Below, in pieces: positions 3,099 through 17,293 of a stretch of 64,000 nt of DNA. Position 1 is the stretch's first letter. Each line of letters starts with the position of its first letter. The notes below the pieces were generated by a model. That model worked only from the letters and a program-made list of their open reading frames with translations. It made no database searches and was not told the DNA's origin. Source of the DNA: a virus (taxonomy: Duplodnaviria; Heunggongvirae; Uroviricota; Caudoviricetes); the IMG/VR virus record IMGVR_UViG_3300028840_001821. One strand, given 5' to 3'. A program made the position numbers and the translations under genes.

Positions 3099-3533
3099 AT
3101 GGACTTCGCGTCAATCGGCATCAACTTGGAGCAGTCCAACCTGCTCACGTGGGGCGTCGTCGCCATTGCGGCGATTAGTTGGCTTTTGCTCTACTGGCGT
3201 GTCAAGAAGCATGTCGTCGCCTTCGTGAAGGGCACGAGCAAGCGCAGCCTTCAGAACATCGTCATCAGCAACGTCGCCATTGCGGCGCTCATCGTGTTGG
3301 TGATGATCGTTGGCTTCAACATGCGCACGCAGCGCAAGATCAAGGTGAAGCCGGACACCACGATGGAACGCAACCTTCAGGATCACGTGGGTATGACGCC
3401 GGAAGAGATCCGTCAGCACCGCGAGCACATTCGCCAGAAGCGTGCGGACCAGTGGAAAAACCGCAAGCAAGAGGCGCGAGAAGACGAGAAAGCAGAGCGT
3501 GAACGGTTGCGTAAGCAACTCATGGGCAAGTAA
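3099..3533 (+). CDS. membrane protein
   Basis: RBS GGAGAAtcacATG. Two predicted TM helices are followed by a charged coiled tail. Confidence 0.5.
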   Translation: MDFASIGINLEQSNLLTWGVVAIAAISWLLLYWRVKKHVVAFVKGTSKRSLQNIVISNVAIAALIVLVMIVGFNMRTQRKIKVKPDTTMERNLQDHVGMTPEEIRQHREHIRQKRADQWKNRKQEAREDEKAERERLRKQLMGK

Positions 3534-3563
3534 GTTCCTTTTTTCCAACTACAGGAGTGTTTT

Positions 3564-4547
3564 GTGATGAAGAAGTTTGCCCTTCTACTCGGTATCGTTG
3601 CCGCCATGTTCGCGGCGGGATGCACCGTCGAAGTGCCGCAGGGCACGAAGTGTAAGGTCATGACCGTCGATGGCTGGCAGGACGAGATCTACGATCCGGG
3701 TCGCGCCACCTGTTGGGGTCGTGACGATGCGTATTTCATCGACACCACCGAGGATCTCTACACCGAGACTCTCAAGATTCTCTGTGCCGATGATCTCAAC
3801 TTCGAGTTCGACGTCAATACGCGCTGCGGCGTGAATGACGACAAGGACGCAATCAACCGCGTGTTTACCAAGGTGCGTTCCGGCGAAGACAAGTTGATCA
3901 GTCGGCAGGATATCTACCGGATCTACGTCAAGCCCGTTGTCGAGGCGGAAGCGCGTAAGATCGTCGCCGCCCGCGAGACCAGTCAGATCAACGCCGAACG
4001 TGGTCAGATCGAGAACGAGATCCGCACGGCTGTTATGGAGCAGTTGAAGACTGTTCCGGTCAACATCGGTCTCATCAACATCTCCAACCTCGACTTCCCC
4101 GCCATCATCACTCAGGCGAACGAGAAGAACAAGCAGCGCGAGATTGCGATCAAGGAAGAGAGAGCGAAGGCTCAGATCGCCCAGGCGCGTGCCGAGGGTG
4201 AACTCAGGGTCAAGAACAAAGAGTATCAGATCGCCCTTCTCGAAGCCAAGGAAATCGCTGACGCTCAGGCGATCATCGGTGCCAGCTTGAACAACAACCC
4301 GCTCTATCTGGCGTGGCAGCAGAACAAGGTCATGCTCGCCGCTGCCAAGAGTGCGAACAAGATGTTCATCGTCCCGTTCGATATGATGAACGGCGGCGGC
4401 ACGGGCGGTCTCATGAACAGCGCCCTGATTCGGGACGCGATTCAGGACTCGAAGCCCGGCGATGGTGTCAACAGCGCCCTGAAGCGTGCGCAAGACGCTC
4501 AGAAGGCGGCGAACGACGCGGAGAAGCGTCAGAACGACGGTCAGTAG
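3564..4547 (+). CDS. SPFH/band-7 (prohibitin/HflKC-like) lipoprotein
   Basis: Signal peptide with a lipobox (LLLGIVAAMFAAGC). The central region has the SPFH-domain character (..EARKIVAARETSQINAERGQIENEIR..EKNKQREIAIKEERAKAQIAQARAEGE..). Confidence 0.6.
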   Translation: MMKKFALLLGIVAAMFAAGCTVEVPQGTKCKVMTVDGWQDEIYDPGRATCWGRDDAYFIDTTEDLYTETLKILCADDLNFEFDVNTRCGVNDDKDAINRVFTKVRSGEDKLISRQDIYRIYVKPVVEAEARKIVAARETSQINAERGQIENEIRTAVMEQLKTVPVNIGLINISNLDFPAIITQANEKNKQREIAIKEERAKAQIAQARAEGELRVKNKEYQIALLEAKEIADAQAIIGASLNNNPLYLAWQQNKVMLAAAKSANKMFIVPFDMMNGGGTGGLMNSALIRDAIQDSKPGDGVNSALKRAQDAQKAANDAEKRQNDGQ

Positions 4548-4666
4548 TCCATTCACAGCCCCGATCTCACCAGAGGTCGGGGCATAAGTCTATTTCGGGA
4601 GAGAGTTATGAGTAGCTCAACTCAATCTCAAGATCCGGGAGCAATGATGATCGTGCGTGAGATTAA

Positions 4667-4797
4667 CCGGCACGGGCGCGGTTGAAAACCGGTTAAGGAA
4701 ACCGGTAGATGAAGAGTGAAATAACCGGGATACCGCTTTGCGAGCAGAATGATATCAGTCTTCAGAAAAGAGGCTTAGATGGAGAGAATACTGAACA
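4667..4797 (+). repeat. conserved roughly 130-nt leader element, copy 1
   Basis: ccggcacgggcgcggttgaaaaccggttaaggaaaccggtagatgaag..cagaaaagaggcttagatggagagaata. Copy 2 at 5188 is about 85% identical. It contains a hairpin aaccgg-ttaaggaa-accggt. Confidence 0.55.
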
Positions 4798-4992
4798 ATG
4801 ATTGAGTGGCAATGCCAAAGCTGTAAGCAACACTTCGGCATAATGCTCATGTGCCCAAACTGTGGCTGGATCATATCGGAAGACTACGTAAAAAGGATCA
4901 GGCGGGCGCGGGAGATCCTAATCCTGGGTCTTGCGCGTAAGGTCCAAGGGATAGATCTTGGTGGCATTATTGATCCGTTTGATCCACTCTAG
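4798..4992 (+). CDS. zinc-ribbon small protein
   Basis: 64 aa with CxxC..CxxC (CQSCKQ..CPNCGW). Lies downstream of conserved leader copy 1. Confidence 0.45.
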   Translation: MIEWQCQSCKQHFGIMLMCPNCGWIISEDYVKRIRRAREILILGLARKVQGIDLGGIIDPFDPL

Positions 4993-5041
4993 CCCGGCGG
5001 GCGGTGCCGAAGGCACGATGTAGCTTAAAGGAAATTGAACT

Positions 5042-5209
5042 ATGATATTGACACTCCAAATACTAGGATCAATAATAGGATTACTAGTGCTATCCTGCTG
5101 GTTCTGGTATGCCTGTGTGTGGGGTCCGATCACCGGGACGTGGCGCATTCTGTGTCTCAAACCCTTCTTCTGCGGGCTCCAATCTAACCGGCGCGGGCGC
5201 GGTTGAAAA
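5042..5209 (+). CDS. single-TM micro-peptide (paralog 1)
   Basis: About 55 aa, MILTLQILGSIIGLLVLSCWFWY.., preceded by the conserved spacer gccgaaggcaNgatgtagcttaaaggaaattgaactATG. Confidence 0.4.
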
Positions 5210-5315
5210 CCGGTTAAGGAAACCGGTAAATGAAGACTGCTATCACTTTGAAATACTGGTGCGATCACTCTGAGTTCAGAGTTCAGAAAAACAGCTTAGA
5301 TAGAGAGAATAACAG
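5188..5315 (+). repeat. conserved roughly 130-nt leader element, copy 2
   Basis: A direct repeat of the 4667-4797 element. It overlaps the 3' end of micro-peptide gene 5042..5209. Confidence 0.55.
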
Positions 5316-5486
5316 ATGATGTATCTGAAGCACAGAAGGTCTGATGTTTCACAGCGCGGGTCGAGAAAACATCCGGTTGGGCACCCGTCCGCGCAGCCCA
5401 TTTCATCCTGCTTAGATTGGTGCTCGGACCGCATGGGTTCATTAATTGAGGTGATCTTGCCGATACTGATTGTTGGAGGAATCTGA
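5316..5486 (+). CDS. small protein downstream of leader copy 2
   Basis: About 56-aa ORF starting right after the second copy of the 130-nt leader. Confidence 0.3.
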   Translation: MMYLKHRRSDVSQRGSRKHPVGHPSAQPISSCLDWCSDRMGSLIEVILPILIVGGI

Positions 5487-5489
5487 ACG

Positions 5490-5615
5490 ATGATCACACT
5501 ATTCATTGTCTCAATCTCATCAATCTTACTAGGAGCAATAGGAGGAGTAATCCTATTCTCGATGCTCATTGGCAGGGATCTTAATCCGTTCTCCCGTCGT
5601 GATTCCCGAGGGTAG
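5490..5615 (+). CDS. single-TM micro-peptide (paralog 2)
   Basis: 41 aa, MITLFIVSISSILLGAIGGVILFSMLIGRDLNPFSRRDSRG, with a hydrophobic helix and charged tail. Confidence 0.4.
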   Translation: MITLFIVSISSILLGAIGGVILFSMLIGRDLNPFSRRDSRG

Positions 5616-5660
5616 CCCGGCGCTGCCGAAGGCAGGATGTAGCTTCAAGGAAACTGAACG

Positions 5661-5801
5661 ATGATCGCATCATTCTTAGGAACCCCACTATCAGGAATCA
5701 TAGCTCTCATTACCATAGTAGGACTCTTGGTATTATGGGCTCGTCTTGATCCCTTTCACACCATCTCTCGCCGTGATCTAATGCGTGATTCTGAAGAGTA
5801 G
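5661..5801 (+). CDS. single-TM micro-peptide (paralog 3)
   Basis: 46 aa, MIASFLGTPLSGIIALITIVGLLVLWARLDPFHTISRRDLMRDSEE, behind the same conserved spacer and RBS as paralog 1. Confidence 0.4.
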   Translation: MIASFLGTPLSGIIALITIVGLLVLWARLDPFHTISRRDLMRDSEE

Positions 5802-5982
5802 ATTGAGCCCTTGTGTGCCTAGCTACACGCCCACTTTCTCGTTGTATTCATCTATTTTTCAGCTAAAACCGCCCAAAACCCCGTCATAGCGGCAAAAAAG
5901 CCGAAATGAGCCCGTAAAGTTCAAGAAAACCGGGTGAAAACAGCCCTAAAGCGAGTTATAACAGTAGAAAGGGGCACTTTAG

Positions 5983-6120
5983 ATGCAGTGGATCAATGAA
6001 TTAACTACTCAGGGGGCGGTGACGCTCTGGATCTTCATCGGAGCGGCTTCTTGGGTAGCTGTAACCTTCATCAAGGCTGTGACGGGTGCCTATCTGCCCC
6101 GAATTGGCGAGGACGAAACC
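5983..6120 (+). CDS. small TM peptide
   Basis: 45 aa, MQWINELTTQGAVTLWIFIGAASWVAVTFIKAV.., downstream of the second GGGTGAAAAC..GAGTTATAAC promoter-like block. Confidence 0.35.
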
Positions 6121-6187
6121 CAAAAGGATTAAGATCTACGGGGCGAAATCGCTTAAAACGGCAAATCAGCGTTTCTGAGGCTCATAA

Positions 6188-6313
6188 GTGAAGAAATACA
6201 AGCCAATGACCCGCGCCCAACGAGCACACGCACTGTTCTGGGTCTTCCTGGGTTTGGCAGAGGTGATCGTTGCCATTCTGATTATGAGCGGCGTGATCCA
6301 GCCGGTGGGATAG
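6188..6313 (+). CDS. small TM peptide
   Basis: GTG start with GAGG 8 nt upstream, 41 aa (..ALFWVFLGLAEVIVAILIMSGV..). Its stop abuts the next ATG. Confidence 0.35.
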   Translation: MKKYKPMTRAQRAHALFWVFLGLAEVIVAILIMSGVIQPVG

Positions 6314-6736
6314 ATGAAGAAGTCCCATTGGGAAGAGGTAGGCTACTACGATATCTATACCCGGAGAGGGTTGATAACTTACACAGAGGAATCTGAGATG
6401 AAAGCGTATTTCAAAAATCTCCTTACTGGTTACATCGACCTGTGGAAGATCTCTTGGAACCTCAAGGGAACCGCATTACCGGCGTGGGTAGGACTCAACG
6501 TTGGGATACTGGCGCTGGTTGTCGCCTTTGTTGTCACCGCCGCCAAGTTAGGGTTCATTGCAACCTTCTTGGGTGTGGCAATCGGCATGTCGTTCTTGTT
6601 GTTCGGTGTGGGTCTGAGGCTCGTAGCAAAAGACCTAAGAACAGAGGGTGGCATTAAGGTGAAGGAAGTAGTGACACCGGTGGAGACAACTCTTGGTGAC
6701 GACCGCGAGGTTGAGTCTTCCGCGCCTCTGAACTAA
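6314..6736 (+). CDS. membrane protein
   Basis: 140 aa with three hydrophobic segments. Confidence 0.5.
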   Translation: MKKSHWEEVGYYDIYTRRGLITYTEESEMKAYFKNLLTGYIDLWKISWNLKGTALPAWVGLNVGILALVVAFVVTAAKLGFIATFLGVAIGMSFLLFGVGLRLVAKDLRTEGGIKVKEVVTPVETTLGDDREVESSAPLN

Positions 6737-7384
6737 TGACTCTTCTATCTTACTAGCCTTGGCGCAGCCAATCTACGGCGAAGCCGGAGACTCTTCCGGT
6801 TGCTCGTAAGGTGAGAATACTTGCTCCTCTCCACCTGCCTTGTACCATCCATTATGGCAAAAAAAGTCCATTCGTTCCAAACTTTTTTGGTAAATCCGTG
6901 GCGTGGTTTTTTGAATTGAAAACTAAAACTGGAAATCTCACCAGCCGCCCGGGTCCACGAAGCGCGACTTATAAGGCGGGATCGCGCTAAACCCCTCCCG
7001 GACCTTGAGATCCGAAGGTCCGAAGTTCGGCACACCGGACAATCCGATCCGAAGCTCGTCTTCTCATTTTGATACTCTCATAATGAGACAGCACATAGAA
7101 ATTCCTTCCTGGTCGGTCCTCTTACTATATAACTCATCCTGAGTCAAGTCGTTTCAAGAAAAAACTCCACTTTTTTGTCACTTCGGGTCTTGCGGTCTGA
7201 ACATCCCCAGGTGTCTCGTTCTTGAACATCGGATCTTCCGATCTGAACGTCGTTACCTCCGGCGCGTCTCTACCATATATATAGAAGAGGGATCTTGAGA
7301 AAAATCCAGAAAGTCTGACGAGATGATGAAGCAAATGAGTTATAGCAGTGAGCGCACAAAGCGCAAAGAAAAAATCAAAACAGC

Positions 7385-7412
7385 TTGACTATCGCCCGCA
7401 GCATGGTATTCT
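7385..7412 (+). promoter_or_regulatory. sigma70-like promoter (TTGACT-N16-TATTCT)
   Basis: -35 at 7385-7390 and -10 at 7407-7412, followed by the leader tggggtgaag. Confidence 0.5.
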
Positions 7413-7462
7413 TGGGGTGAAGTCGAACGAAACACTTTTCTCTCTTGAAAGGAATTTGGATC

Positions 7463-8092
7463 ATGTCGGACAAGGAAACCAAGACCCGCGAGCGCAAGGT
7501 GACCGTCACGGACGAGATGCTCAAGAGCTACCGCGAGATCGGCAGCGAGACTCCGAGCCCGATGGCGACCCTGCTCCGCACCCTCCCGGACGCCGAGGCG
7601 AAGAAGCAGATCCAGCGCATCGAGAACGCGGTCGAGAAGAACAGCAAGGACCGACTGGCGTCGGACGAGGGCTACCAGAGTGCCCGCAAGCTGTTCGAGG
7701 CGGCGAAGAACACCTTCTACCGCACCCGCAACAAGCTGACCGTCGAGGACGTCTCGATCGAGAACCCGGACTTCGACTCCGACCAGCCGGTGAGCGAAGA
7801 GAATCCCGCGAAGATCATCATCAAGCGCAACGGCTTCGAGTCCCGCCGTGCCGCGCTCCGCGAGAAGATCGCCGAAGAGGACGCCAAGGAAGCGTCGGCG
7901 GCGGCGGAGACCGCGACGGGCGAGAACTTCGACCCGAAGCAGGAGATCAGCGAGACCAACATGCCCGAGGGCGTGCTGCACAAGAACATGCGCGAGGCGC
8001 AGGAGAGAAAGCGGGCTCTCGCCCGCAAGGCGATGGGACTCAACGGCACCGACCAGGAGACCCCGCCCGAGGTCCTGACCGACGGCGAGTAG
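7463..8092 (+). CDS. hypothetical acidic protein
   Basis: ATG after leader ..gaaaggaatttggatcATG. The track start (TTG 7445) reads the leader as protein. Confidence 0.5.
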   Translation: MSDKETKTRERKVTVTDEMLKSYREIGSETPSPMATLLRTLPDAEAKKQIQRIENAVEKNSKDRLASDEGYQSARKLFEAAKNTFYRTRNKLTVEDVSIENPDFDSDQPVSEENPAKIIIKRNGFESRRAALREKIAEEDAKEASAAAETATGENFDPKQEISETNMPEGVLHKNMREAQERKRALARKAMGLNGTDQETPPEVLTDGE

Positions 8093-8436
8093 AATACCGA
8101 CAGACCCCAACTTCCTCCGCATAGGGACCGCCCGGCTTCGCCGGGCGTGTCCCGACTTTTAACACTTTCGGGCTCACGGGTAACATCCTTGTAGGACGCG
8201 GGTAGCTAACCCATCAATACGGGACTGCCAACGCATGGGTTCCGGAGCCCGATTTATGGACGGGTCCGCTGGATCGGCGGGTCAGCGCAGTAATCAGATC
8301 ATCCCGGTGGGTTCGATTCCCACGCCCGTCCACCCTCCAACTTCGGATCTACCGGTCCGAACGTCCCACCTCTGTTCTGCCTTACGGGCGATTTCTCCCC
8401 GCGAATAAGGTCCCCCAGGTTTCTTTGAAAAAGAAT

Positions 8437-8464
8437 TTGACTTCACGCGCTCCGGGTGTATACT
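8437..8464 (+). promoter_or_regulatory. sigma70-like promoter (TTGACT-N16-TATACT)
   Basis: Followed by the conserved leader tggggtgaaaggaaacgaaacccaATG. Confidence 0.55.
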
Positions 8465-8488
8465 TGGGGTGAAAGGAAACGAAACCCA

Positions 8489-8977
8489 ATGATCGTAACA
8501 GAGCAAGAGATTCGGAAACTGGTCAGGGTCAAGGGGCATACCACGCCCGCCACCTACGAGGACGCAGTGCAAGAGGCTCTACTGGCGGCTCACCTTGCCG
8601 AGCAAGAGAAACCCGACAACAAGCAGTTCGCTATCGGTCGGGCGATCACGGCGGCGCGTAACTTCACGCGGAAAGAGCGTGCCAGGGGACGCCACGAAGG
8701 CGGCGGAGAGTTCTGCCAGGGACTCGACATCCATGACGAAGAGGTCGCCAACCAGCTTATCGCCCCCGTGCCGGACTTCTCCCCGGCGCAGGTGGACGCG
8801 CTTCACGCCTTCGTCGAGGAGCAGGACGAGCCGACCCGCGAGATCATGGCGGCGATCCTTGCCGGCGATAGCATGATGCGAATCAGCAACCGCACCGGCA
8901 GGAGCCACAGCGACGTGTGCCGCATCGTGCGGCGGTTCAAGGAAGCGGCATCCAGGGAACTGGAGGGGGTGGAATAA
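8489..8977 (+). CDS. sigma-factor-like protein (region 4 HTH)
   Basis: The C-terminal ..EIMAAILAGDSMMRISNRTGRSHSDVCRIVRRFKEAAS resembles a sigma70/ECF region 4.2 HTH. Confidence 0.45.
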   Translation: MIVTEQEIRKLVRVKGHTTPATYEDAVQEALLAAHLAEQEKPDNKQFAIGRAITAARNFTRKERARGRHEGGGEFCQGLDIHDEEVANQLIAPVPDFSPAQVDALHAFVEEQDEPTREIMAAILAGDSMMRISNRTGRSHSDVCRIVRRFKEAASRELEGVE

Positions 8978-8993
8978 CCGCCCTTCGGGGCGG
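8978..8993 (+). terminator. GC hairpin after stop (ccgcccttcggggcgg)
   Basis: Perfect stem with a uucg-type loop immediately after the TAA stop; there is no T-run. Confidence 0.35.
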
Positions 8994-9022
8994 GGGAAGA
9001 CAAAAGAGTAAAGGATCTGAAC

Positions 9023-9397
9023 ATGACAATCAGACCATCTCAGTGCCACGATTTTCCCGTCGGCGAGTGCTGGCGGGACCACTGCGGCGAGGGCGTTCAC
9101 AAGGTCTATGATGGTAGCTGGTTCGAGAATGACGACGGACCTGATGATACCGGCTACTACATCTACCAGAGCCAGGTAGACCAGATGTGGGTGGTCGAGC
9201 GGGCGCTGATGTGCAATCCCTACGACAGCCCGGAGAATCGCCCTGTTGCCAAGTTCGCCGATGAGCAAGAGGCAATCAACTACGCCGTGGGGCTTGCCAG
9301 GGATAACGCTCGCACGATAGCCGCCCGGGTAGAGACCCACCTCAAGGACTACGCGGATCGGCTTTGGGCGAACGAGACCAAGGCGGCAGGGATCTAA
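9023..9397 (+). CDS. hypothetical protein
   Basis: RBS aaaggatctgaacATG, 124 aa. Confidence 0.5.
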   Translation: MTIRPSQCHDFPVGECWRDHCGEGVHKVYDGSWFENDDGPDDTGYYIYQSQVDQMWVVERALMCNPYDSPENRPVAKFADEQEAINYAVGLARDNARTIAARVETHLKDYADRLWANETKAAGI

Positions 9398-9729
9398 CCG
9401 GCTTTGCCGTGCTAACGAGAACGAGAATTGGAAGTGTAAATAGGAATCCGAGTTGGAGGTCTGCATCAATATTATATATGCGACCCTGGACCTTCCTACC
9501 TCTGGATCTTAAGATCTGAAACTCCGAAGTTCACGGAGTCTCAGAATGGGAATCTCAGAATGAGACGTCCCTGGAATGGGAATCTGGTTCCGTCGCCCAA
9601 GAATACCACATTCTCACGACGAGTCAAGCACAAAATCGGCGATTTTGGTAAATACGTTCAGGTCTGAACCTCTCCGCCCCCAACGCGCAGCGGTCTCAAA
9701 ATGAGAATGCAAAATTCCAGAAAAACGGT

Positions 9730-9757
9730 TTGACAATCGAATCTCATGAGTTATAAT
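9730..9757 (+). promoter_or_regulatory. sigma70 consensus promoter (TTGACA-N16-TATAAT)
   Basis: Followed by the leader aggggtgaaaggaaagaaaaccATG. Confidence 0.6.
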
Positions 9758-9779
9758 AGGGGTGAAAGGAAAGAAAACC

Positions 9780-10502
9780 ATGAAACTACTATCGGTCGGA
9801 TCGGACGCGAAAACGGTCAAGGGCGAAAAACTCGGGTATCTAACGGGTATCCTGTATCTCAGTCCCGCCGATGAGATTCCCGGGCAGAACCTATGCCCGT
9901 TCGCTTCCCCGGGTTGCCGTGCCGCGTGCCTGTATACCGCCGGGCGCGGTGCTATGGCGAACGTGAAAGCCGGGCGCGTGCGGAAAACGCTTCTCTTCGT
10001 CGAGGACCGGGAGGTATTTCTTTCTCAGTTACGGGCAGATATTTCCCGGTTGGTGAATCAAGCGCGGAAAAAGGGAATGCGTCCCGTTGTGAGACTCAAC
10101 GGCACGAGCGATCTTCCGTTCGAGAAAATTTTTCCCGATCTTTTCGCGGAATTTCCTCAAGTCCAATATATGGACTATACCAAGAATCCGTATCGGATGC
10201 GGAAATTTCTTCGCGGTGGATTGCCCGCGAACTATCACTTGACCTTTTCCCGAAGTGAGACGAATCACCGGACGGCGCTTTCGATTCTCAAATCGGGAGG
10301 GCAGGTAGCCGTGGTCTTCTCCGGGAAAATTCTTCCGCCCGATTGGAAGGGATTCCCGGTTCGAGACGGCGACGCCCACGACGCGAGATTCTCAGATCGG
10401 GACGGCGTGATCGGTCTGGTTTCGAAAGGGCAGGCGTCTCGGGATGAGACGGGTTTCGTGGTCGATCCCGGATTCCCGCAGGGGAAAAAGATCAAACGGT
10501 AG
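9780..10502 (+). CDS. hypothetical protein with Cys motif (CPFASPGCRAACLY)
   Basis: 240 aa. The C..SPGC..AC.Y motif resembles the N-terminal Cys cluster of the phage Gp37/Gp68 (DUF5131)-type family; this match is tentative. Confidence 0.45.
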   Translation: MKLLSVGSDAKTVKGEKLGYLTGILYLSPADEIPGQNLCPFASPGCRAACLYTAGRGAMANVKAGRVRKTLLFVEDREVFLSQLRADISRLVNQARKKGMRPVVRLNGTSDLPFEKIFPDLFAEFPQVQYMDYTKNPYRMRKFLRGGLPANYHLTFSRSETNHRTALSILKSGGQVAVVFSGKILPPDWKGFPVRDGDAHDARFSDRDGVIGLVSKGQASRDETGFVVDPGFPQGKKIKR

Positions 10503-10664
10503 GAACATCTGAAACAACATGGTTTGTCCTCCTTTCGCAAAGTGAGACGCGGGGTAACTCCCCGCGATCTCGCTATCGAACTAACGATGAAAAGGTCTGA
10601 ACGTTGTTAGCGTGCTGTCAAAATGCGCGGACAAATGCGTCGGACAGAAAGTTTTGATTATCAC

Positions 10665-10692
10665 TTGACAGCGCCGCCCTATAGGATATAAT
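10665..10692 (+). promoter_or_regulatory. sigma70 consensus promoter (TTGACA-N16-TATAAT)
   Basis: The block cttgacagcgccgccctataggatataattagggtgaaaggg is nearly identical to the block at 11082. Confidence 0.6.
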
Positions 10693-10715
10693 TAGGGTGA
10701 AAGGGACAAACAACC

Positions 10716-10934
10716 ATGAGCAACATCGAAATTCTGGACGACGGGCGAACCGTCGGCTACAACGTGCGCGACCTACTGCGCGAGGCAATCAAGGATATGG
10801 ACGTTCCCGAGATGAGACGCGACACATCAAGCGACTCAAACGTCCGATGGTTGAGCCGAAACCTCGCCATCCAAAATCGGGACAACGAGAATTTCCGCGT
10901 GGCGATGCACTTCATCCGCGCCCTACTGTCATGA
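10716..10934 (+). CDS. hypothetical protein
   Basis: 72 aa. The track ORF 10697..11101 is a frame that begins in the leader. Confidence 0.45.
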   Translation: MSNIEILDDGRTVGYNVRDLLREAIKDMDVPEMRRDTSSDSNVRWLSRNLAIQNRDNENFRVAMHFIRALLS

Positions 10935-11101
10935 GTAACCGATCAGAACATCGTAAGGTAGCAGCGAAACGCGCCGGTAAGGGCGGAGTAAACTGCTACT
11001 GCTGCGATCCGTCACCCCGCGAGAAGAAGAAATTCTTTCGCACTATCCGGCGGATACTCAAGAGAAAATTCCGAAAGGAACTTGACAGCGCCGCCGGGTA
11101 G
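10931..11101 (+). CDS. small basic Cys protein
   Basis: ATGA overlap with the upstream stop; 56 aa (..GVNCYCCDPSPREKKKFFRTIRRILKRKFRK..). Its 3' end contains the next promoter. Confidence 0.35.
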   Translation: MSNRSEHRKVAAKRAGKGGVNCYCCDPSPREKKKFFRTIRRILKRKFRKELDSAAG

Positions 11102-11109
11102 GGTATAAT
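11082..11109 (+). promoter_or_regulatory. sigma70 consensus promoter (TTGACA-N16-TATAAT)
   Basis: A duplicate of the 10665 block, followed by the leader ggggtgaaaggaaggaaagccATG. Confidence 0.6.
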
Positions 11110-11131
11110 TGGGGTGAAAGGAAGGAAAGCC

Positions 11132-11479
11132 ATGAACGAGAAACCAACGGCAGAAAGCCTCGGACTCCACGCCGATACGCACGAGCGGTGGACGTGGTTC
11201 TCCCAAATCGGCTACAAACCGCCGCAGGAGGACGTCGATACCGTCCGCGAGGCGTTCTATCAGGACTATGAGTATGCCTGCTACAAGCGGGATACGTTCG
11301 AGTGGTTGGGCAACGTCAAGCCGAATCACCTTGCCGACGCGCAAGCCGGTGCCGACTCAAGGGGATTGGCGGTAGTCTTCCTGAAACTACCGATGCCCGC
11401 GCATGACCCGTCCGAACTGCCCGACGATGAGCCGCCAAGCGGGTGGGATTCATCGTGGGGGGAGGACCCGAGAGAATAA
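11132..11479 (+). CDS. hypothetical protein
   Basis: 115 aa, starting after the conserved leader. Confidence 0.5.
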   Translation: MNEKPTAESLGLHADTHERWTWFSQIGYKPPQEDVDTVREAFYQDYEYACYKRDTFEWLGNVKPNHLADAQAGADSRGLAVVFLKLPMPAHDPSELPDDEPPSGWDSSWGEDPRE

Positions 11480-11480
11480 C

Positions 11481-11565
11481 GGGCGTGAGACTGGCTTTCG
11501 ACCCGGCGTAAGACCCGAAAAGGGAGCGACCGGGGACCTCGGTTCAATTCCGAGCACGTCCACCA
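11481..11565 (+). ncRNA. tRNA-like structured RNA with encoded CCA
   Basis: The 5' gggcgtg pairs with the 3' cacgtcc acceptor, followed by A-CCA. There is a perfect T arm (ctcgg-ttcaatt-ccgag) and an internal stem (ctttcg/cgaaag). At 85 nt it does not fold as a standard cloverleaf in my hands. Confidence 0.4.
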
Positions 11566-11579
11566 GAATACCAAACGAT

Positions 11580-11735
11580 GGGAACGTCGGACCGCCGGGG
11601 AACCTTAGCGGGTTCCGTTAGGTAGCATAGTGCTTAGGTCCGGTTGAGAGACACCGAGCCGGATAGGTGTCAGTGGAAAGCCGTGCGCACGGTCGGAAGC
11701 GTTCGAGGCGGGGTGCAATTCCCCACGTTCCTACC
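11580..11735 (+). ncRNA. tRNA-like-ended structured RNA, about 155 nt
   Basis: The 5' gggaacg pairs with the 3' cgttcct at the far end, next to a T-arm-like cgggg-tgcaatt-cccc. The interior has several perfect hairpins (ggaacc-ttagcg-ggttcc, ccgtgcgcacgg, ccgg..ccgg). Confidence 0.3.
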
Positions 11736-11758
11736 CTTTTAATCCGAAATGCATTCTG

Positions 11759-11884
11759 CAAATAGGGTTTGATTTCCATGGCAGGAAAACGCCCCTATAG
11801 TAGTAGCGACGATCACATCCGAACATCTTTTTCTCATAACGAGACTTCGGACGTTTGGATCTGAACATCCGACCGGGGCGCGGA
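11759..11884 (+). repeat. composite intergenic repeat unit (copy a)
   Basis: caaataggg..ttccatggcaggaaaac..ccctatag, then 20 nt, then tccgaacatctttttctcataacgagac..cggacgtttggatctgaacatcc. Confidence 0.55.
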
Positions 11885-11957
11885 GCGAGTCTCATCCCGA
11901 GATTCCGATGTTCGGATAGGATTCTCTGACGGCTGCTGAGAAAAAAAGAAAATCACC

Positions 11958-11985
11958 TTGACGGCAAGCCACTTCGTGATATAAT
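11958..11985 (+). promoter_or_regulatory. sigma70 promoter (TTGACG-N16-TATAAT)
   Basis: Followed by the leader ggggtgaaaggcaaggaaacaaa..aaaggagcaaaatcATG. Confidence 0.6.
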
Positions 11986-12031
11986 TGGGGTGAAAGGCAA
12001 GGAAACAAACCCGCTCGAAAGGAGCAAAATC

Positions 12032-12760
12032 ATGAAGGCAACGCTCGAAATGGTCAAGGCGGTCGAGACCCCCGCCCCCACGGACACCTGGAACCCGATC
12101 TCGCACGTGGACTTCCTGGACGTGATCGAGTCGCAACTCCGGCAGGAAGGCTGGCGGTTGCACGAGACCCGGCACGATCTCGCAAAGGGCGGAATCCGCT
12201 ACACCGGACGCGCTCTCCTGATTCCGGCGGACGTGTCGGAAGTGGTTCGCGCCGGAGCGGACGTCAAGCTCATGCTCGGTTGGGCGAACTTCCTCGACAA
12301 GTCCCGGGCGGCGACGATTCTCGGCGGCTCGGACGTGTTTATCTGCTCGAACGGTCAGATGTTCGCGGAGCACAAGGTCTCCGGCAAGCACACCACGAAC
12401 GTAATCCGGACCCTCCGGTCGCGGTTCGCGGGTGCCCTGGACTCGATCCTGAACCGGTTCGACGATGAGGTCCGCCGGTTCGAGGAGTTCAAGGAAACCG
12501 CCCTGGAGCGCCCGGACATGGCGGAAATGATCCTCGACGCCCGCAAGCGGGGTGCCCTTCCCGCCGCCGACGTCCTCAAGGTGATGGCGGAATACGACGC
12601 CCCGTCCTTCGAGGAGTTCAAGGGCGGAACGGTCTGGACCGGGTTCAACGCCTTCACCACGGTCGCACGGGCGCGTTTCGAGAAGAATCCCGCCGCCGCC
12701 GCCGATGAGTCGCTCGCCTTGGGCGAACTGTTCGAGGAGCGATACCCGATCGCCAGCTAA
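12032..12760 (+). CDS. hypothetical protein
   Basis: Strong RBS aaaggagcaaaatcATG, 242 aa. The opposite-strand ORF 11834..12778 is judged spurious. Confidence 0.5.
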   Translation: MKATLEMVKAVETPAPTDTWNPISHVDFLDVIESQLRQEGWRLHETRHDLAKGGIRYTGRALLIPADVSEVVRAGADVKLMLGWANFLDKSRAATILGGSDVFICSNGQMFAEHKVSGKHTTNVIRTLRSRFAGALDSILNRFDDEVRRFEEFKETALERPDMAEMILDARKRGALPAADVLKVMAEYDAPSFEEFKGGTVWTGFNAFTTVARARFEKNPAAAADESLALGELFEERYPIAS

Positions 12761-12765
12761 CCGAC

Positions 12766-12790
12766 CACCGGACCGCAAGGTCCGGTGTTT
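12766..12790 (+). terminator. hairpin caccggaccgcaaggtccggtg plus uuu
   Basis: Perfect stem immediately after the stop codon. The same ggaccgcaaggtcc core recurs after other genes. Confidence 0.45.
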
Positions 12791-12863
12791 CCCTTAGCCG
12801 AACAAACGATGAAGCGGTCCGAACGTCGGTAGCCAGAGGGCAAAAAGAAATTCTGAAAAGGGT

Positions 12864-12891
12864 TTGACTAAGGCATTTGACGTGCTATAAT
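12864..12891 (+). promoter_or_regulatory. sigma70 promoter (TTGACT-N16-TATAAT)
   Basis: Followed by the leader aggggtaagaaaggacggaaaccATG. Confidence 0.6.
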
Positions 12892-12914
12892 AGGGGTAAG
12901 AAAGGACGGAAACC

Positions 12915-13262
12915 ATGAGCCTGAAAGACGAAATTCACGACGTGTTCGCCAGCGAGAACGCAGTGCTGGACCCGGACGACGCGGAGAACCTGACCGCCGC
13001 CCTGTTCGCGCAAGTGCCCGCGCTGGACTACAACATCAACCCCAACGGAATCACGGTCTGGACGCCCGACAAAGCGCCCGAGTGGGCGAAGAAGCACGCG
13101 CCGGAGAAGACCATGCACATAGCGTGGATTCCGATCACGGCGGGGCGAGTGACCGCCCTATTCGGTCCGGGGACCGCCTTCGGCAAGGGGTTCCAACTTC
13201 AGACGGTCACGCTTCCCGGGGACGTCAAGGGCTTTCTTGCCTACGGCACCGAAAGCGAGTAA
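12915..13262 (+). CDS. hypothetical protein
   Basis: 115 aa. Confidence 0.5.
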   Translation: MSLKDEIHDVFASENAVLDPDDAENLTAALFAQVPALDYNINPNGITVWTPDKAPEWAKKHAPEKTMHIAWIPITAGRVTALFGPGTAFGKGFQLQTVTLPGDVKGFLAYGTESE

Positions 13263-13363
13263 CCGACCCGGACGTCGCAAGCGCGGCGTCCACCTTGCGG
13301 CGGAATATCCGACCTAACGGTCCGAACGTCGGAACCTTCCCTGCTTTTTTACGAGGATTCTGG

Positions 13364-13391
13364 TTGACAATCGCCGTAGGCGAGTTATAAT
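13364..13391 (+). promoter_or_regulatory. sigma70 consensus promoter (TTGACA-N16-TATAAT)
   Basis: Sits ahead of a roughly 170-nt structured leader before the 13563 gene. Confidence 0.55.
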
Positions 13392-13562
13392 AGTAGTGAG
13401 CTTAAGACCTCACGCAATAGCCAAACAACCATCCCGGCGAAGGCTGGAAAACCGGGGCGATAAATGAGGCGCTAATGCGACGGCTACTAAACCGTAAGTG
13501 GCTAAAACCCACCCTCACGGGGGACCTTAAGCTTTCTCTTATTTTCACAACAGGAGAAGACT

Positions 13563-13724
13563 ATGCAAGCGATGAACCTGACCGCAATCGACCAACTGTT
13601 CGAGAAGAACCCGGAGATCAAATCCAACCGGGCAAGGCGGAACGCGATCCACAACGCCGCCCCGTGGCTCACGAAGGATGAGGCGGGACAGGCGCTCGCT
13701 CTATGGCTCCGCTATCGCGGGTAA
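13563..13724 (+). CDS. small protein (53 aa)
   Basis: Strong RBS acaggagaagactATG. Not in the ORF track because it is shorter than 60 aa. Confidence 0.4.
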   Translation: MQAMNLTAIDQLFEKNPEIKSNRARRNAIHNAAPWLTKDEAGQALALWLRYRG

Positions 13725-13740
13725 ACGAAAATCCATTCTA

Positions 13741-13880
13741 CAAATAGGGTAAGGTTTCCATGGCAGGAAAACCGCCCTATAGATTAACAGACAAAGCGGT
13801 CCGAACATCTTTTTATCATTCCGAGACCGTCTCAAAATGAGACGCCGCACATCGGACGTTTGGGTCTGAACGTCCAAACC
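13741..13880 (+). repeat. composite intergenic repeat unit (copy b)
   Basis: The same architecture as copy a, and it includes a perfect palindrome gtctcaaaatgagac at 13829-13843. Confidence 0.55.
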
Positions 13881-13924
13881 TCACGCCTCGCAAACCCCGT
13901 GCCAAAAGAAATTCTAATTTCGAC

Positions 13925-13952
13925 TGGACTCGATTCCTATTCGTGCTATAAT
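13925..13952 (+). promoter_or_regulatory. promoter (TGGACT-N16-TATAAT)
   Basis: Perfect -10 but a weaker -35. Followed by the leader aggggtgacaagcaaaggagaacaggagaaaaatcATG. Confidence 0.45.
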
Positions 13953-13987
13953 AGGGGTGACAAGCAAAGGAGAACAGGAGAAAAATC

Positions 13988-14209
13988 ATGAGTCGCTGGT
14001 CACTGCCCGGATACGATGAGTGGAAAACCACGGACCCCAACGAGACCGACCCGGCGGACTATGAGTGCCGCATGTGTGACCTCGACGGGGACGAGTGCCA
14101 ATGTGAGAATCAGGACGATTGGGTCCTGAAAGACAACGAGCCGGACGACTACGACGACGACTACGACGACGCCGACGTGTGCGACCGGTTCTATAGCCCC
14201 TACGACTAA
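13988..14209 (+). CDS. acidic Cys-containing small protein
   Basis: 73 aa, ..CRMCDLDGDECQCENQDDW.., with a poly-D/Y tail. Confidence 0.45.
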   Translation: MSRWSLPGYDEWKTTDPNETDPADYECRMCDLDGDECQCENQDDWVLKDNEPDDYDDDYDDADVCDRFYSPYD

Positions 14210-14462
14210 CAGGAGGATTCAAACAATGGGCTACTGACTCGCAGCCTAAGCCCGACTCCCAGGCGATAGGGAAGTCGGTTGGGCGCTGAAGTATCGTCCC
14301 GTCGGATTAGCTACCCGGCGGTTGTAATGGCGGGAGTTAGCTACCCGTCGCACCTACCTTCGGATGTTCCGATCCGAACCTCCCTACCTTATGCCGTTCC
14401 GGCGTCTCAAATCGGGACAAAGAAAATTCCAGATTTAGCTTTACTGATACTCCGTTTGGGCT

Positions 14463-14468
14463 ATAATA
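14463..14468 (+). promoter_or_regulatory. -10 TATAAT (weak -35 TTACTG at 14441)
   Basis: The context gggctataatagatatagaaacggaggacaaaaATG matches the cassette pattern. Confidence 0.35.
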
Positions 14469-14490
14469 GATATAGAAACGGAGGACAAAA

Positions 14491-14646
14491 ATGGTTGTCA
14501 TTCTCAGCATACCCGGCGGGTTTCAAGATACGGTCGAGACCGTAGTGGTGCCCGGGGCGAAAACCGCGAAACAGGCAATCGCGGAAGCCAAGAAACAATT
14601 TCCCCGTGAGAAGCGGGATTCAATCCGAGCGGAGGTAAGGAAATGA
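14491..14646 (+). CDS. small protein (51 aa)
   Basis: MVVILSIPGGFQDTVETVVVPGAK... Its stop overlaps the next start (ATGA). Confidence 0.4.
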   Translation: MVVILSIPGGFQDTVETVVVPGAKTAKQAIAEAKKQFPREKRDSIRAEVRK

Positions 14647-14990
14647 GTCTCACAAAGAAACACTTCGTCGATCTCGCAAAGAGACTCGGCGAGGAGAACG
14701 CCAGCGACCGTCTCATTTCGGGAATCGCGGATTTCTGCGAGGAGCACAATCCCCGGTTCGACCGGACCCGGTTCATCCAGGCTGTCGAGGAGAATCGGGA
14801 CGTCAACCGTTGCACCAAGTGTAACGAGGTCATTCCCGATTTGGGACAGGCGTTGACGCAATTCTGCGCCACGTGCGCCACCGAAAACGAGGACTTCGAC
14901 GAATCACCCTGTATTCGGTGCATGGCGGAGAACGAGCGCGAATGCACGTGCGGCGACTATCTGGCGATTGACAACGACCCCCTCTTCTAA
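14643..14990 (+). CDS. Cys-rich zinc-binding protein
   Basis: 115 aa with several CxxC-type pairs (CTKCNEV..CATCATEN..CIRCMAENERECTCGD). Confidence 0.5.
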   Translation: MSLTKKHFVDLAKRLGEENASDRLISGIADFCEEHNPRFDRTRFIQAVEENRDVNRCTKCNEVIPDLGQALTQFCATCATENEDFDESPCIRCMAENERECTCGDYLAIDNDPLF

Positions 14991-14997
14991 GGATTAG

Positions 14998-15015
14998 CGG
15001 ACCGCAAGGTCCGTT
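14998..15015 (+). terminator. hairpin gcggaccgcaaggtccgt
   Basis: Same ggaccgcaaggtcc hairpin family, placed after the stop codon. Confidence 0.4.
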
Positions 15016-15067
15016 ATTCGCTGCCAGCTTCGGACGTTCGGAGCCGAACCTTATTCCAAGATTCTCC

Positions 15068-15095
15068 TTGATTGTAGCGCCCAACGTGCTATAAT
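15068..15095 (+). promoter_or_regulatory. sigma70 promoter (TTGATT-N16-TATAAT)
   Basis: Followed by the leader agaagtgaaaggagacaaggaaATG. Confidence 0.55.
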
Positions 15096-15117
15096 AGAAG
15101 TGAAAGGAGACAAGGAA

Positions 15118-15477
15118 ATGCCAAGACGATACCCAACCGAACCCGTCGAGGACCCCGCAGTCATTTGCGAGGGATGCGGCAACGAGTTCAACGTGGACGA
15201 TTTCACCGACGGACTGTGCTTCGATTGCCTTCAAGATCTCGAATACGAGCGCAACTGCGAAATGCGCGAACTGGCAAACGACCCGGATTCCCCCTACTTC
15301 ATGGCGGACCGGTTCGCGGACCCCGGCGGCGACTCGTGCCTCTACCCGGAAACCGACGACAACCCGCGCAATCTCGCGTGCCCCAACTGCGGAGCGGAGA
15401 ACGTGCTAACCCCGGCGGACCGATCGGCGGGCTATCAGTGCGACCCGTGCGCCCGGCAGGCGGAAATGGGTTTCTAA
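15118..15477 (+). CDS. Cys-rich zinc-finger protein
   Basis: 119 aa (CEGCGNEF..CFDCLQD..CPNCGAEN..CDPCARQ). Confidence 0.5.
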   Translation: MPRRYPTEPVEDPAVICEGCGNEFNVDDFTDGLCFDCLQDLEYERNCEMRELANDPDSPYFMADRFADPGGDSCLYPETDDNPRNLACPNCGAENVLTPADRSAGYQCDPCARQAEMGF

Positions 15478-15492
15478 TCCACGAATCCCTGT

Positions 15493-15612
15493 CAATTTAC
15501 AAGGCAGGGATTTTGCCCTATAGAGGTTAAGATGAAGCGATCCGAACATCTTTTTCTCATTCCGGGATTTCTCACAATGAGAATCGGACGTTTGAATCTG
15601 AACATCCGAACC
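15493..15612 (+). repeat. composite intergenic repeat unit (copy c)
   Basis: caatttacaaggcagggattttgccctataga..tccgaacatctttttctcattccgggatttctcacaatgagaatcggacgtttgaatctgaacatccgaacc. Confidence 0.55.
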
Positions 15613-15657
15613 GTGCTCGCTGCAAATCCCGTGCCAAAAAGAAAAAACAAAAAGGGC

Positions 15658-15685
15658 TTTACTGTGAGCGATACCATGCTATAAT
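15658..15685 (+). promoter_or_regulatory. sigma70 promoter (TTTACT-N16-TATAAT)
   Basis: Followed by the leader aagagtgaaaggaaacagaacaATG. Confidence 0.5.
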
Positions 15686-15707
15686 AAGAGTGAAAGGAAA
15701 CAGAACA

Positions 15708-15893
15708 ATGGTCAACCCGAGAAACGCAAGGCGATACCTGATTCTAAGGGAATTGCTCCGGGACTTCGGACGATTCGCTCTCTACTTTGTAGTCGGGACA
15801 ATCGCGCTGTTTCTCATTTGGGGACTATGCGAGGGTATCAAGGATACGTGTTTCCCAAAATGGAACCACGTGCCCTATGTTGAGGGAAGGTGA
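15708..15893 (+). CDS. small membrane protein
   Basis: 61 aa containing a TM helix (FALYFVVGTIALFLIWGL). Confidence 0.45.
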   Translation: MVNPRNARRYLILRELLRDFGRFALYFVVGTIALFLIWGLCEGIKDTCFPKWNHVPYVEGR

Positions 15894-15896
15894 AAA

Positions 15897-16130
15897 ATGT
15901 TCCGGAGGAAGCGTAAGCTGGCAGTGACGCTGACCGTGAAAAAGGTTCCGGTCGAGGTCGAATACGAGCATTTCAATCTGAGACGCCGCGCAACGGTCGA
16001 GGTCGCCCCGTGTCTCAATGTGGAACGCACGATGCGCCGCGCCGAGAATCTCATTCGGAGAATGGTCGGTTTCGGCAACGGACCGGACAGTCTGAAAATC
16101 GTTCACACCAGCATGGTCGTCTCATCGTGA
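15897..16130 (+). CDS. hypothetical basic protein
   Basis: RBS gagggaaggtgaaaaATG, 77 aa. Confidence 0.4.
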   Translation: MFRRKRKLAVTLTVKKVPVEVEYEHFNLRRRATVEVAPCLNVERTMRRAENLIRRMVGFGNGPDSLKIVHTSMVVSS

Positions 16131-16221
16131 GACGGCGGGCGGACCAAGTGTCCGTCTTCTCTTACGAGCTAACGACGTTCGCATCCGAACAGCGGACCGG
16201 CGATTTCTTTTTGGTTTTTCC

Positions 16222-16249
16222 TGGACTCTCGCGCCCAATGGGCTATAAT
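16222..16249 (+). promoter_or_regulatory. promoter (TGGACT-N16-TATAAT)
   Basis: The block ctggactctcgcgcccaatgggctataatagaggtgaaaggg is nearly identical to the block at 18502. Confidence 0.5.
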
Positions 16250-16271
16250 AGAGGTGAAAGGGAAACAAATC

Positions 16272-16739
16272 ATGCGATACGAAGAACTGTTAGGAAGCCA
16301 CATAACGCCGATGGAAGCGGCGGAAATGGCGGAAGAGACAACCCCGTCGTGGCGTCCCGATCTGGAAGACGTTGGAACGTCCGAGGAAATGGCGTCGGTA
16401 ATGGGACGTTTCGCCGAGCGATTCGAGAGCGACATTCTCGAACTGAGAAAGATCCCGATTGCGGATTGCTGTGTCGGGTGGGCGACCGTTTGGGAAGACG
16501 CCGTCCAAGACTACGCCGAGCGCATGGCAGCGGGCGAAATGGACTATCCGCCGATCATCGCCAGCGCGAACGATCCCGAGGATACTTGGTCAAGCCGCTG
16601 GACCGTGGAAGACGGGTCGCACCGCTGTCTCGCTCTGAGACAGATCGGAATCACTCACGTATATGCTTACGTCGAAGTGGACGAACATCTTGAGCCGCTG
16701 GTCCTGAATACGACGCCGGATTTACCGTTTCCCGAATAG
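16272..16739 (+). CDS. ParB/sulfiredoxin-like domain protein
   Basis: The ..WTVEDGSHRCLALRQIGITHVYAYV.. motif (DGxHR..A) is typical of the ParB N-terminal nuclease/NTPase-like domain. Confidence 0.45.
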   Translation: MRYEELLGSHITPMEAAEMAEETTPSWRPDLEDVGTSEEMASVMGRFAERFESDILELRKIPIADCCVGWATVWEDAVQDYAERMAAGEMDYPPIIASANDPEDTWSSRWTVEDGSHRCLALRQIGITHVYAYVEVDEHLEPLVLNTTPDLPFPE

Positions 16740-16866
16740 AGACAACTGTTCTCCCCTTTCAAAATGAGACGACCGACCGAAACCCGAACGGGAAACTCGG
16801 TCGTCTCGCTTTGGGACACCGGCGGTTCGGACCTGAACGTCGCTACCACTTTATTCTAAATTTCGT

Positions 16867-16894
16867 TTGACTAATAGCCTGAAGGGACTATAAT
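16867..16894 (+). promoter_or_regulatory. sigma70 promoter (TTGACT-N16-TATAAT)
   Basis: Followed by atagttgaacggagagaaacATG. Confidence 0.55.
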
Positions 16895-16914
16895 ATAGTT
16901 GAACGGAGAGAAAC

Positions 16915-17292: not shown

Positions 17293-17293
17293 T
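17266..17293 (+). promoter_or_regulatory. promoter (TTGCGT-N16-TATAAT)
   Basis: Lies inside the end of the upstream gene, followed by the leader agaagtgaaagcaaaggagaacggaaacATG. Confidence 0.45.

Follow-up and report, generated by a model that had tools for sequence, protein, structure and literature searches.

Structured intercistronic regions and upstream open reading frame (ORF) leader peptides are an established general mechanism for coupling the translation of neighboring genes, and small inner-membrane proteins such as Imm and Sp of phage T4 are known for superinfection exclusion. Two other kinds of locus are also comparable. Type I toxin-antitoxin (TA) loci, including ldr/rdl, ibs/sib, zor/orz, fst/RNAII and hok/sok, encode peptides of fewer than 70 residues with one transmembrane (TM) helix and a charged or aromatic C-terminal tail, and published search heuristics add tandem repetition, similarity that reaches into the 5′ flank, and omission by gene callers (Fozo et al., 2010; PMC2887945). 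The promoter-early stem-loop (PeSL) cassettes of T4-type phages are short, conserved, non-coding stem-loop sequences that flank small ORFans in hyperplastic regions differing between close relatives, and PeSL-mediated shuffling of such regions is documented (PMC2839356, PMC4122927). Here we describe a locus that resembles each of these systems in part, located at positions 4548-5983 of a 64,000-nt stretch, hereafter the window, of the IMG/VR virus record IMGVR_UViG_3300028840_001821 (Caudoviricetes).

We tentatively read 4548-5983 as an accessory island that is hypervariable, arose by tandem duplication and encodes small inner-membrane proteins acting on the host envelope, with one of its repeated elements serving as a coupling leader, and regard this reading as somewhat short of probable. 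Across 4608-5801 the island holds eight small, co-directional ORFs on the plus strand (a25, L-ORF1, Zn64, P1, L-ORF2, o56, P2 and P3), together with two copies each of a leader element, L, and an intercistronic element, S.

Repeated leader and intercistronic elements

Element L is about 127 nt long and occurs on the plus strand in two copies 521 nt apart, L1 at 4664-4790 and L2 at 5185-5311. A first-pass annotation of this DNA had described a duplicated 130-nt leader here; the duplication stands, but L is not a pure leader, as the preceding ORF has its last seven codons (NR(H/R)GRG-stop) in the 5′ end of L, and an ORF of 29-30 codons lies within L. The copies are 90% identical over their first 62 nt and, taken by block, match at 50/53 positions in the 5′ part, 9/22 in the middle and 40/52 (77%) in the 3′ part, which in L1 reads TTCAGAAAA..GCTTAGAT.GAGAGAATA; a run of 35 nt is without any difference (4673-4707 = 5194-5228). 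The 28-mer core of L has only these two occurrences in the 64 kb and none in shuffles, and a remnant of L that was sought after P3 was not significant. Two independently assembled Logan contigs (L003 and L012) both break at window position 5199, inside L2. We take these to be assembly breaks at the repeated 35-nt core and not biological ends, and because the contigs break within this repeat, the cassette copy number could be mis-assembled in public contigs.

Each copy of L carries the same pair of hairpins. HP1 (4663-4685 in L1, where its stability is -10.1 kcal/mol, and 5184-5206 in L2) includes the UGA stop of the upstream ORF, at 4683-4685 in L1. HP2 (4688-4706 and 5209-5227), which the first-pass annotation had already picked out as aaccgg-uuaaggaa-accggu, has the form ACCGGUU-AAGGA-AACCGGU and a stability of -9.6 kcal/mol equaled by none of 200 shuffles. 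Its 5-nt loop holds the Shine-Dalgarno (SD) sequence AAGGA, and its 3′ end lies 2 nt ahead of the AUG at 4709, where the internal ORF of L begins. This upstream ORF (L-ORF1, 30 codons, 4709-4801; L-ORF2, 29 codons, 5230-5319; both on the plus strand) is the only one in the island with its SD sequence inside a stable hairpin, and in both copies its stop overlaps the next start in the sequence ATGA, the start being that of o56 in the case of L-ORF2. The encoded peptide is unconserved: differences between the two ORFs fall at the three codon positions in the proportion 10/11/11, and a dN/dS of 0.48/0.39 = 1.2 indicates no protein-level constraint. No amino-acid or antibiotic sensing codons were evident in L, and a terminator/antiterminator alternative was unsupported, the alternative 2:3 hairpin reaching only -4.5 kcal/mol. 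A reading of HP1 as an integron attC site was rejected by eye, the element being too short and the core sites unfitting.

Element S is about 50 nt long and also occurs twice on the plus strand, S1 at 4990-5046 and S2 at 5613-5665, with 89% identity (42/47 nt in the core, 5000-5046 versus 5619-5665, after a 4-nt indel), and its borders are exactly the TAG stop of one ORF and the ATGAT start of the following one. The element had been annotated, as 45 nt, before each of three small peptides; we found it before P1 and P3 only, and P2 (5490) has only the 18-nt ribosome-binding and start motif AGGAATCTGAACGATGAT in common with them. Within S is a hairpin of 5 bp with a GAA loop (GCCGAAGGC), GUGCC-GAA-GGCAC at 5004-5016 in S1 and CUGCC-GAA-GGCAG at 5623-5635 in S2, with stabilities of -7.2 and -6.9 kcal/mol. 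The outermost pair is G-C in S1 and C-G in S2, a single compensatory change for which the chance probability, with five substitutions spread over 47 nt, is roughly estimated at about 1-2%. This hairpin had been thought to overlap the ribosome-binding site (RBS). In both copies it ends 12 nt upstream of the SD sequence AGGA (5029-5032 in S1, ahead of the AUG at 5042), with no overlap, and in the folding check that the annotation had suggested, the 76-nt start regions of P1 and P3 were no more structured than shuffles (z = +0.35 and +0.33, respectively; P2 start, z = -0.73), so that occlusion of the RBS by S is absent.

The cores of L and S have no further copy elsewhere in the window or in shuffles, and both elements are confined to 4.6-5.7 kb. 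Divergence between their copies is 6-11%, compared with a dS of about 0.8-1.0 at synonymous sites of the genes they flank, a disparity in sequence conservation that points to either nucleotide-level constraint or gene conversion.

Small membrane peptides and other ORFs of the island

Three plus-strand ORFs encode peptides with one TM helix each: P1 (54 aa, 5042-5206), which has its helix at the N-terminus, a Cys/Trp-rich middle and an RRGRG tail coded by the 5′ end of L2; P2 (41 aa, 5490-5615), with the tail GRDLNPFSRRDSRG; and P3 (46 aa, 5661-5801), with the tail WARLDPFHTISRRDLMRDSEE. The tails are basic, with the motifs RRGRG, RRDSRG and RRDLMRDSEE in P1, P2 and P3, respectively. Their best 19-residue Kyte-Doolittle windows score 2.25-2.48, with no Lys or Arg before the helix and four to five after it. 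Together with o49, a gene just downstream of the island, they share an uncharged N-terminus and a strongly hydrophobic helix followed by three to five Lys/Arg, from which an N-out, C-in topology is predicted.

The first-pass annotation had treated these ORFs as three paralogous peptides of 41-55 aa, and the single-TM architecture with basic RRD/RRG tails was borne out for all three; detectable similarity is limited to P2 and P3 (matched by 10/1000 shuffles), and P1 is not significantly similar to either. In the P2/P3 alignment, seven of the 15 identical residues are encoded by different synonymous codons, and the shared tail, L-D/N-P-F..S-R-R-D..S, has a dN of 0.36 and a dS of 1.06. Because the tail has been kept through synonymous changes, the codon comparison indicates that it is maintained by protein-level selection and that P2 and P3 are translated genes.

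The remaining ORFs, all on the plus strand, are more varied. The 25-residue a25 (4608-4685) ends in seven codons (NRHGRG-stop) that are the 5′ end of L1. Zn64 (64 aa, 4798-4992) has a zinc-ribbon-like CxxC..CxxC arrangement, with sub-threshold matches to Zn_ribbon_3 and Zn_ribbon_6, a basic middle, and a weakly hydrophobic C-terminus whose last residues are IIDPFDPL; its tail and that of P2 keep homology. In o56 (56 aa, 5316-5486) a basic N-terminus precedes a C-terminal hydrophobic anchor, EVILPILIVGGI, that resembles the TM segment of the downstream gene o41 (6188-6313; 0/1000 shuffles), and its TGA stop lies 3 nt ahead of the P2 AUG. Zn64, o56 and o41 have five to six Lys/Arg first and the hydrophobic segment at the C-terminus.

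The ORFs are packed with stop-start junctions of the forms ATGA and TGA-ACN-ATG. All five of Zn64, P1, o56, P2 and P3 begin with ATGAT, four of them within TGAACnATGAT, and this start motif resembles the conserved 5′ untranslated region (UTR) of the phage's early-promoter cassette, described below. On the plus strand, seven ORFs that begin with ATG, span at least 25 codons and follow an SD sequence cover 69% of 4548-5830, versus 28% on the minus strand; coverage in simulated sequences was 12 +/- 11%, and none of 2000 simulations reached 69%. Minus-strand ORFs of 116 and 97 aa were dismissed as antisense shadows, as the other called genes are all on the plus strand and the SPFH gene bordering the island itself has an antisense ORF of 323 aa.

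Promoters and antisense candidates

The phage has a well-defined early-promoter cassette, which consists of an A/T-rich UP element, TTGACW-N16-TATAAT, and the 5′UTR agggGTGAAAGGAAA..ATG. The region at 7.4-21 kb (7385-21100) has about 21 copies, all on the plus strand and one before nearly every small gene; they match the sigma-70 consensus at 10-12 of 12 positions, with five copies perfect (12/12), and the promoter scan returned 33 sites versus 10 +/- 3 in shuffles. A palindromic hairpin element stands ahead of many of the cassettes, yielding PeSL-like composites. The hairpin element, CGGACGTTCGGATCCGAACATCCG, has at least seven dispersed copies in 7180-21780 (for example, 13838-13883, 15016-15061, 18938-18983 and 19641-19686) and usually lies 40-70 nt upstream of the promoter cassette, the pair having the look of a T4-type PeSL composite.

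No such cassette was found within 4548-5900, where L and S score below zero against a position weight matrix built from 19 of the phage's cassettes; L reads TTGAAA-18-TAGATG, in which the -10 hexamer lacks the final T. The best cassette score in a scan of 4500-5950 belongs to a degenerate copy at 5935-5962 on the plus strand, GTGAAA-16-TATAAC followed by agtagaaagggg, which stands ahead of o49 and forms the right border of the island. One sigma-70-like site, TTGACA-17-AATAAT (11/12; 5048-5076, plus strand), lies inside the start of P1. In simulations, 0.7% of 1.4-kb regions have a site as good. The P1 site misfits the N16 cassette, is the only 11/12 site in the window outside N16 cassettes, and might drive transcription of unit B of the duplication. 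The T4-type late promoter TATAAATA was not found in the region; a lone TATAAATA motif occurs at 38345, preceding an ORF of 645 aa.

The first-pass annotation had also proposed a search for minus-strand promoters, which would be expected of a type I antitoxin RNA. The antisense scan yielded three promoter-like sites, where shuffles gave 2.0 +/- 1.5; two of the three, on the minus strand, have matches at only 9/12 positions, within chance, whereas the phage's real promoters match at 10-12/12 and are all on the plus strand. Counts of terminator-like structures in the region were likewise within shuffle expectation. The sole antisense candidate is a weak one: beyond a minus-strand GTGAAA-16-CATAAT (5759-5732, 9/12) lies a weak terminator-like hairpin (5675-5656) overlapping the start of P3, and neither P1 nor P2 has a conserved equivalent on the opposite strand.

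Relatives and database searches

L and S were sought at the DNA level, with exact and degenerate patterns, in IMG/VR, JGI metagenome contigs and GTDB genomes, and no match was obtained; tblastn searches of phages with P2, P3 and Zn64 were equally negative. A profile search of 5.8 billion proteins with P1-P3 returned no homolog, and a P2/P3 profile run against 1.84 billion representatives returned a single match to a repetitive protein of 1140 aa (E = 2.6e-4), which was judged spurious. The peptides matched no known toxin family (Hok/Gef, Ldr, Fst, TisB, Ibs, ShoB, Zor and others) and no other family in Pfam, PHROGs, NCBIfam or PADLOC, and against Rfam there was nothing at the gathering threshold and only chance-level results in an E-value search.

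A search for related loci with the SPFH protein, P1 and Zn64 produced one 15-residue match inside an unrelated acidic protein of 278 aa, which was rejected. As a query, the downstream protein o140 matched itself only, and the SPFH protein recovered a distant AT-rich phage without the cluster and one 1.5-kb contig (L007) encoding an SPFH protein of 87% identity. This relative shares the start of a25, ATGAGTAGCTCAA, as the start of an unrelated, longer gene, and its upstream spacer differs too. Because L007 carries unrelated sequence right after ATGAGTAGCTCAA, comparison of the two sequences indicates that the island is strain-specific and its site hypervariable. The SPFH neighborhoods of Klebsiella phage Miami and Pseudomonas phage RVTF4 showed no conserved link to micro-peptides.

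The phage and its genomic setting

The island is carried by an uncultured, large tailed phage with a genome of about 170 kb and all called genes on the plus strand; a contig of 169,698 bp encodes an SPFH protein identical to that next to the island, and 100% identical sequence is also present in JGI metagenome 3300017971 and in Logan assemblies. The window contains 28 tRNA genes in one array at 24.1-29.3 kb (24097-29265) and homologs of terminase, portal and tape-measure proteins at 33-55 kb, the tape measure being its largest ORF (1261 aa). Searches of INPHARED phages by blastn, with the region and with the packaging module, gave no DNA match, and the terminase shares only 25% identity with its Bacillus phage counterparts. 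The phage is probably virulent.

To the left the island is bordered by the gene for an SPFH/Band 7 lipoprotein (3564-4547; Pfam E = 4.5e-16; PHROG 200), which has the lipobox AAGC and homologs of 26-30% identity in jumbo phages of Pseudomonas, Vibrio, Klebsiella, Erwinia and Aeromonas. Directly after this gene, and forming the left border, is a strong 11-bp stem-loop on the plus strand at 4558-4583 (-22.9 kcal/mol, z = -4.7, 0/200 shuffles as stable), which is terminator-like with a weak U tract. To the right are the plus-strand membrane-protein genes o49, o41 and o140 (5983-6132, 6188-6313 and 6314-6736; span 5983-6736), which have typical codon usage and are called by public gene callers; the first two are the further small TM ORFs that the first-pass annotation had noted at 5983 and 6188, and both are confirmed. 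With a 144-aa TM protein, the SPFH lipoprotein and these three, the island has membrane genes on both sides.

Several other features of the genome were recorded. A contig of the same phage (L002) extends upstream of window position 1 and carries, just outside the window, a Ribosomal_L12 (PF00542) domain gene and a radical-SAM gene (contig positions 2492-2893 and 918-1889). In the window are a dCMP/cytidine deaminase (821-1282), a protein matching Pfam GP88 (9762-10502; PF17338, E = 4.5e-47), and a Sigma70_r2-domain gene (31324-31932; PF04542) that suggests a phage-encoded sigma factor for later transcription. The early region also contains a family of 98-nt repeats in five copies (11747, 13729, 15470, 17752 and 20006), spaced by about 1.7-2.3 kb, 62-74% identical to the reference copy and ending in GATCCGAACATCTTTTTCTCAT. 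Coding repeats with a periodicity of 45/51 nt lie at 60613-63264, in ten copies with the consensus ACGTCTGGTGAGATTGGTGGCTA; translated by hand they would read ..SGxIGGY.., and the gene is probably tail-fiber-like.

Discussion

In the reading that we tentatively favor, the island would have been built through tandem duplication of a micro-gene cassette of about 521 bp, and its genes would be transcribed in the same direction as the rest of the genome, in a polycistronic message. P1, P2, P3 and o49 would be bitopic inner-membrane micro-proteins with the N-terminus out and the basic tail in, and Zn64, o56 and o41 their partners, N-in and anchored at the C-terminus. Each ORF has the phage's standard initiation region (AAGGA, 9-10 nt, ATGAT) together with stop-start junctions of the ATGA or TGA-ACN-ATG form. 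In L, a ribosome terminating at the upstream UGA, 2 nt before HP2, would open that hairpin and free the SD sequence of the 29-30-codon upstream ORF, otherwise held in the loop; the upstream ORF, ending in ATGA, would then hand ribosomes to Zn64 or o56, so that its translation would count and not its peptide. S would be a standard initiation region joined to a small, stable hairpin, and we infer that the hairpin may be an intercistronic site for mRNA stability, processing or protein binding. The neighboring SPFH lipoprotein and other membrane proteins would join the peptides in acting on the host envelope, be it in superinfection exclusion or in the modulation of host membrane proteins.

Several observations weigh against this reading. 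Codon usage is atypical in all eight ORFs (log-odds at or below 0, versus +0.30 for sure genes), and P1 is the least gene-like of them, its sense frame scoring below an antisense frame; none of the eight was called by the JGI or Logan gene callers. No good promoter was found ahead of unit A, and the hairpin at 4558-4583 may terminate transcription arriving from upstream. The searches found no relative with L, S or the peptides that would permit a covariation or synteny test, and the identity of the L and S copies could come from gene conversion instead of function. Envelope action is the most likely role of the peptides, as suggested by their topology and neighborhood only.

Among the alternatives, the one we consider least unlikely, though still doubtful, is that L and S are recombination-prone junctions analogous to PeSLs, at which unrelated micro-ORFs have been swapped or amplified, so that the ORFs would not be diverged duplicates. 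The ATGAT start and the TAG stop are indeed the exact points where identity of about 90% gives way to noise, a close relative has other sequence in place of the island, as in the hyperplastic regions where this kind of shuffling is documented, and the neighboring early region has its some 21 promoter cassettes, many after hairpin elements, so that true PeSL-like composites lie next door in the same phage. L and S themselves, however, occur only twice each in the 64-kb window and only locally, have neither a consensus sigma-70 promoter nor a U-tract terminator, and have as their conserved cores translation-initiation regions and coding ends, and the P2/P3 and Zn64/P2 tails keep the homology expected of diverged duplicates. 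A little less likely again is a decaying or non-functional duplication, with most ORFs unexpressed and the conservation a product of recent duplication or gene conversion. Such an origin would fit the atypical codon usage, the odd composition of P1, the uncalled ORFs, the missing homologs and the neutral evolution of the L-ORF, but synonymous divergence of P2 and P3 is near saturation while their tail motif is kept, tiling by SD-bearing ORFs is far above chance, the S hairpin has a compensatory change, and a tightly packed phage genome would not usually carry 1.4 kb of junk.

The first-pass annotation had likened the locus to a type I TA module, in which P1-P3 would be membrane-depolarizing toxins whose translation is checked by an antisense RNA or a structured leader. 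The likeness in peptide size, topology and tandem arrangement holds, extending to the Trp that follows the TM helix of P3 ahead of a charged cluster, to similarity that reaches into the 5′ flank and to omission by gene callers, all of which belong to the published heuristics, and the single weak antisense candidate over the P3 start could be counted with them. Unlike known type I loci, the island has no above-chance antisense RNA gene, no occluded peptide RBS (z about +0.3 for P1 and P3, -0.73 for P2) and no homology to any known toxin family, and its ORFs form a co-directional, translationally coupled, operon-like array and not a stand-alone intergenic locus; in a large, tRNA-rich phage, for which no integrase turned up in those parts of the window that were examined, an addiction module would also have no obvious role. 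With no antitoxin RNA gene above chance and the other defining features not found, a type I TA module is not supported, and we regard it as improbable. Lysis-timing peptides of the holin/antiholin kind, or DNA-hairpin promoters at S of the type used by the N4 virion RNA polymerase, are more improbable by a wide margin. The early promoters of N4 are hairpins with a stem of 5-7 bp and a 3-nt loop, used with a giant virion RNA polymerase, and the S hairpin, with its 5-bp stem and 3-nt purine loop, is of this form; on the side of lysis timing, the peptides are single-TM. However, scanning ten ORFs at 3099-6736 revealed neither an endolysin nor a spanin domain, the window has no ORF for a giant RNA polymerase, and the early genes use sigma-70 promoters.

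The first-pass observation was thus largely right, with three corrections: S precedes two of the peptides, its hairpin is off the RBS, and P1 is only loosely related to the others. Its hedge toward small phage membrane proteins of the superinfection-exclusion type lies closer to the evidence than a type I TA module. Like T4 Imm and Sp, the island peptides would be small bitopic membrane proteins from a non-essential variable region, expressed with other membrane proteins; they differ in showing no sequence similarity to these, in being far shorter (41-54 aa) and in forming tandem paralogs, and their function is a prediction. Similarly, L has the anatomy of a coupling leader in the placement of an upstream stop 2 nt before an SD-carrying hairpin and in a short, unconserved ORF that ends on the next start, and differs from described leaders in that its mechanism is so far a proposal, with neither evident sensing codons nor a supported terminator/antiterminator switch.

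By itself the island is a new orphan example of familiar phage content, and it opens no long-standing question. It is conceivable, though we think it improbable, that L and S constitute a new form of cis control, in which a leader composed of a stop codon, an SD-holding hairpin and an upstream ORF, in place of an antisense RNA, gates toxin-like peptides and their partners, with the GAA-triloop hairpin, possibly bound by Zn64, as a second control point; if this were true, the phage would have a means for the timed or stoichiometric release of membrane-perturbing peptides. If the island is expressed, its products would form a new orphan family of micro-membrane-proteins of phages, overlooked by standard gene callers, and the island would be a clear case of intercistronic control sequences under far stronger constraint than the genes they serve, which would be useful for the annotation of small ORFs in phages and for the study of how accessory islands diversify.

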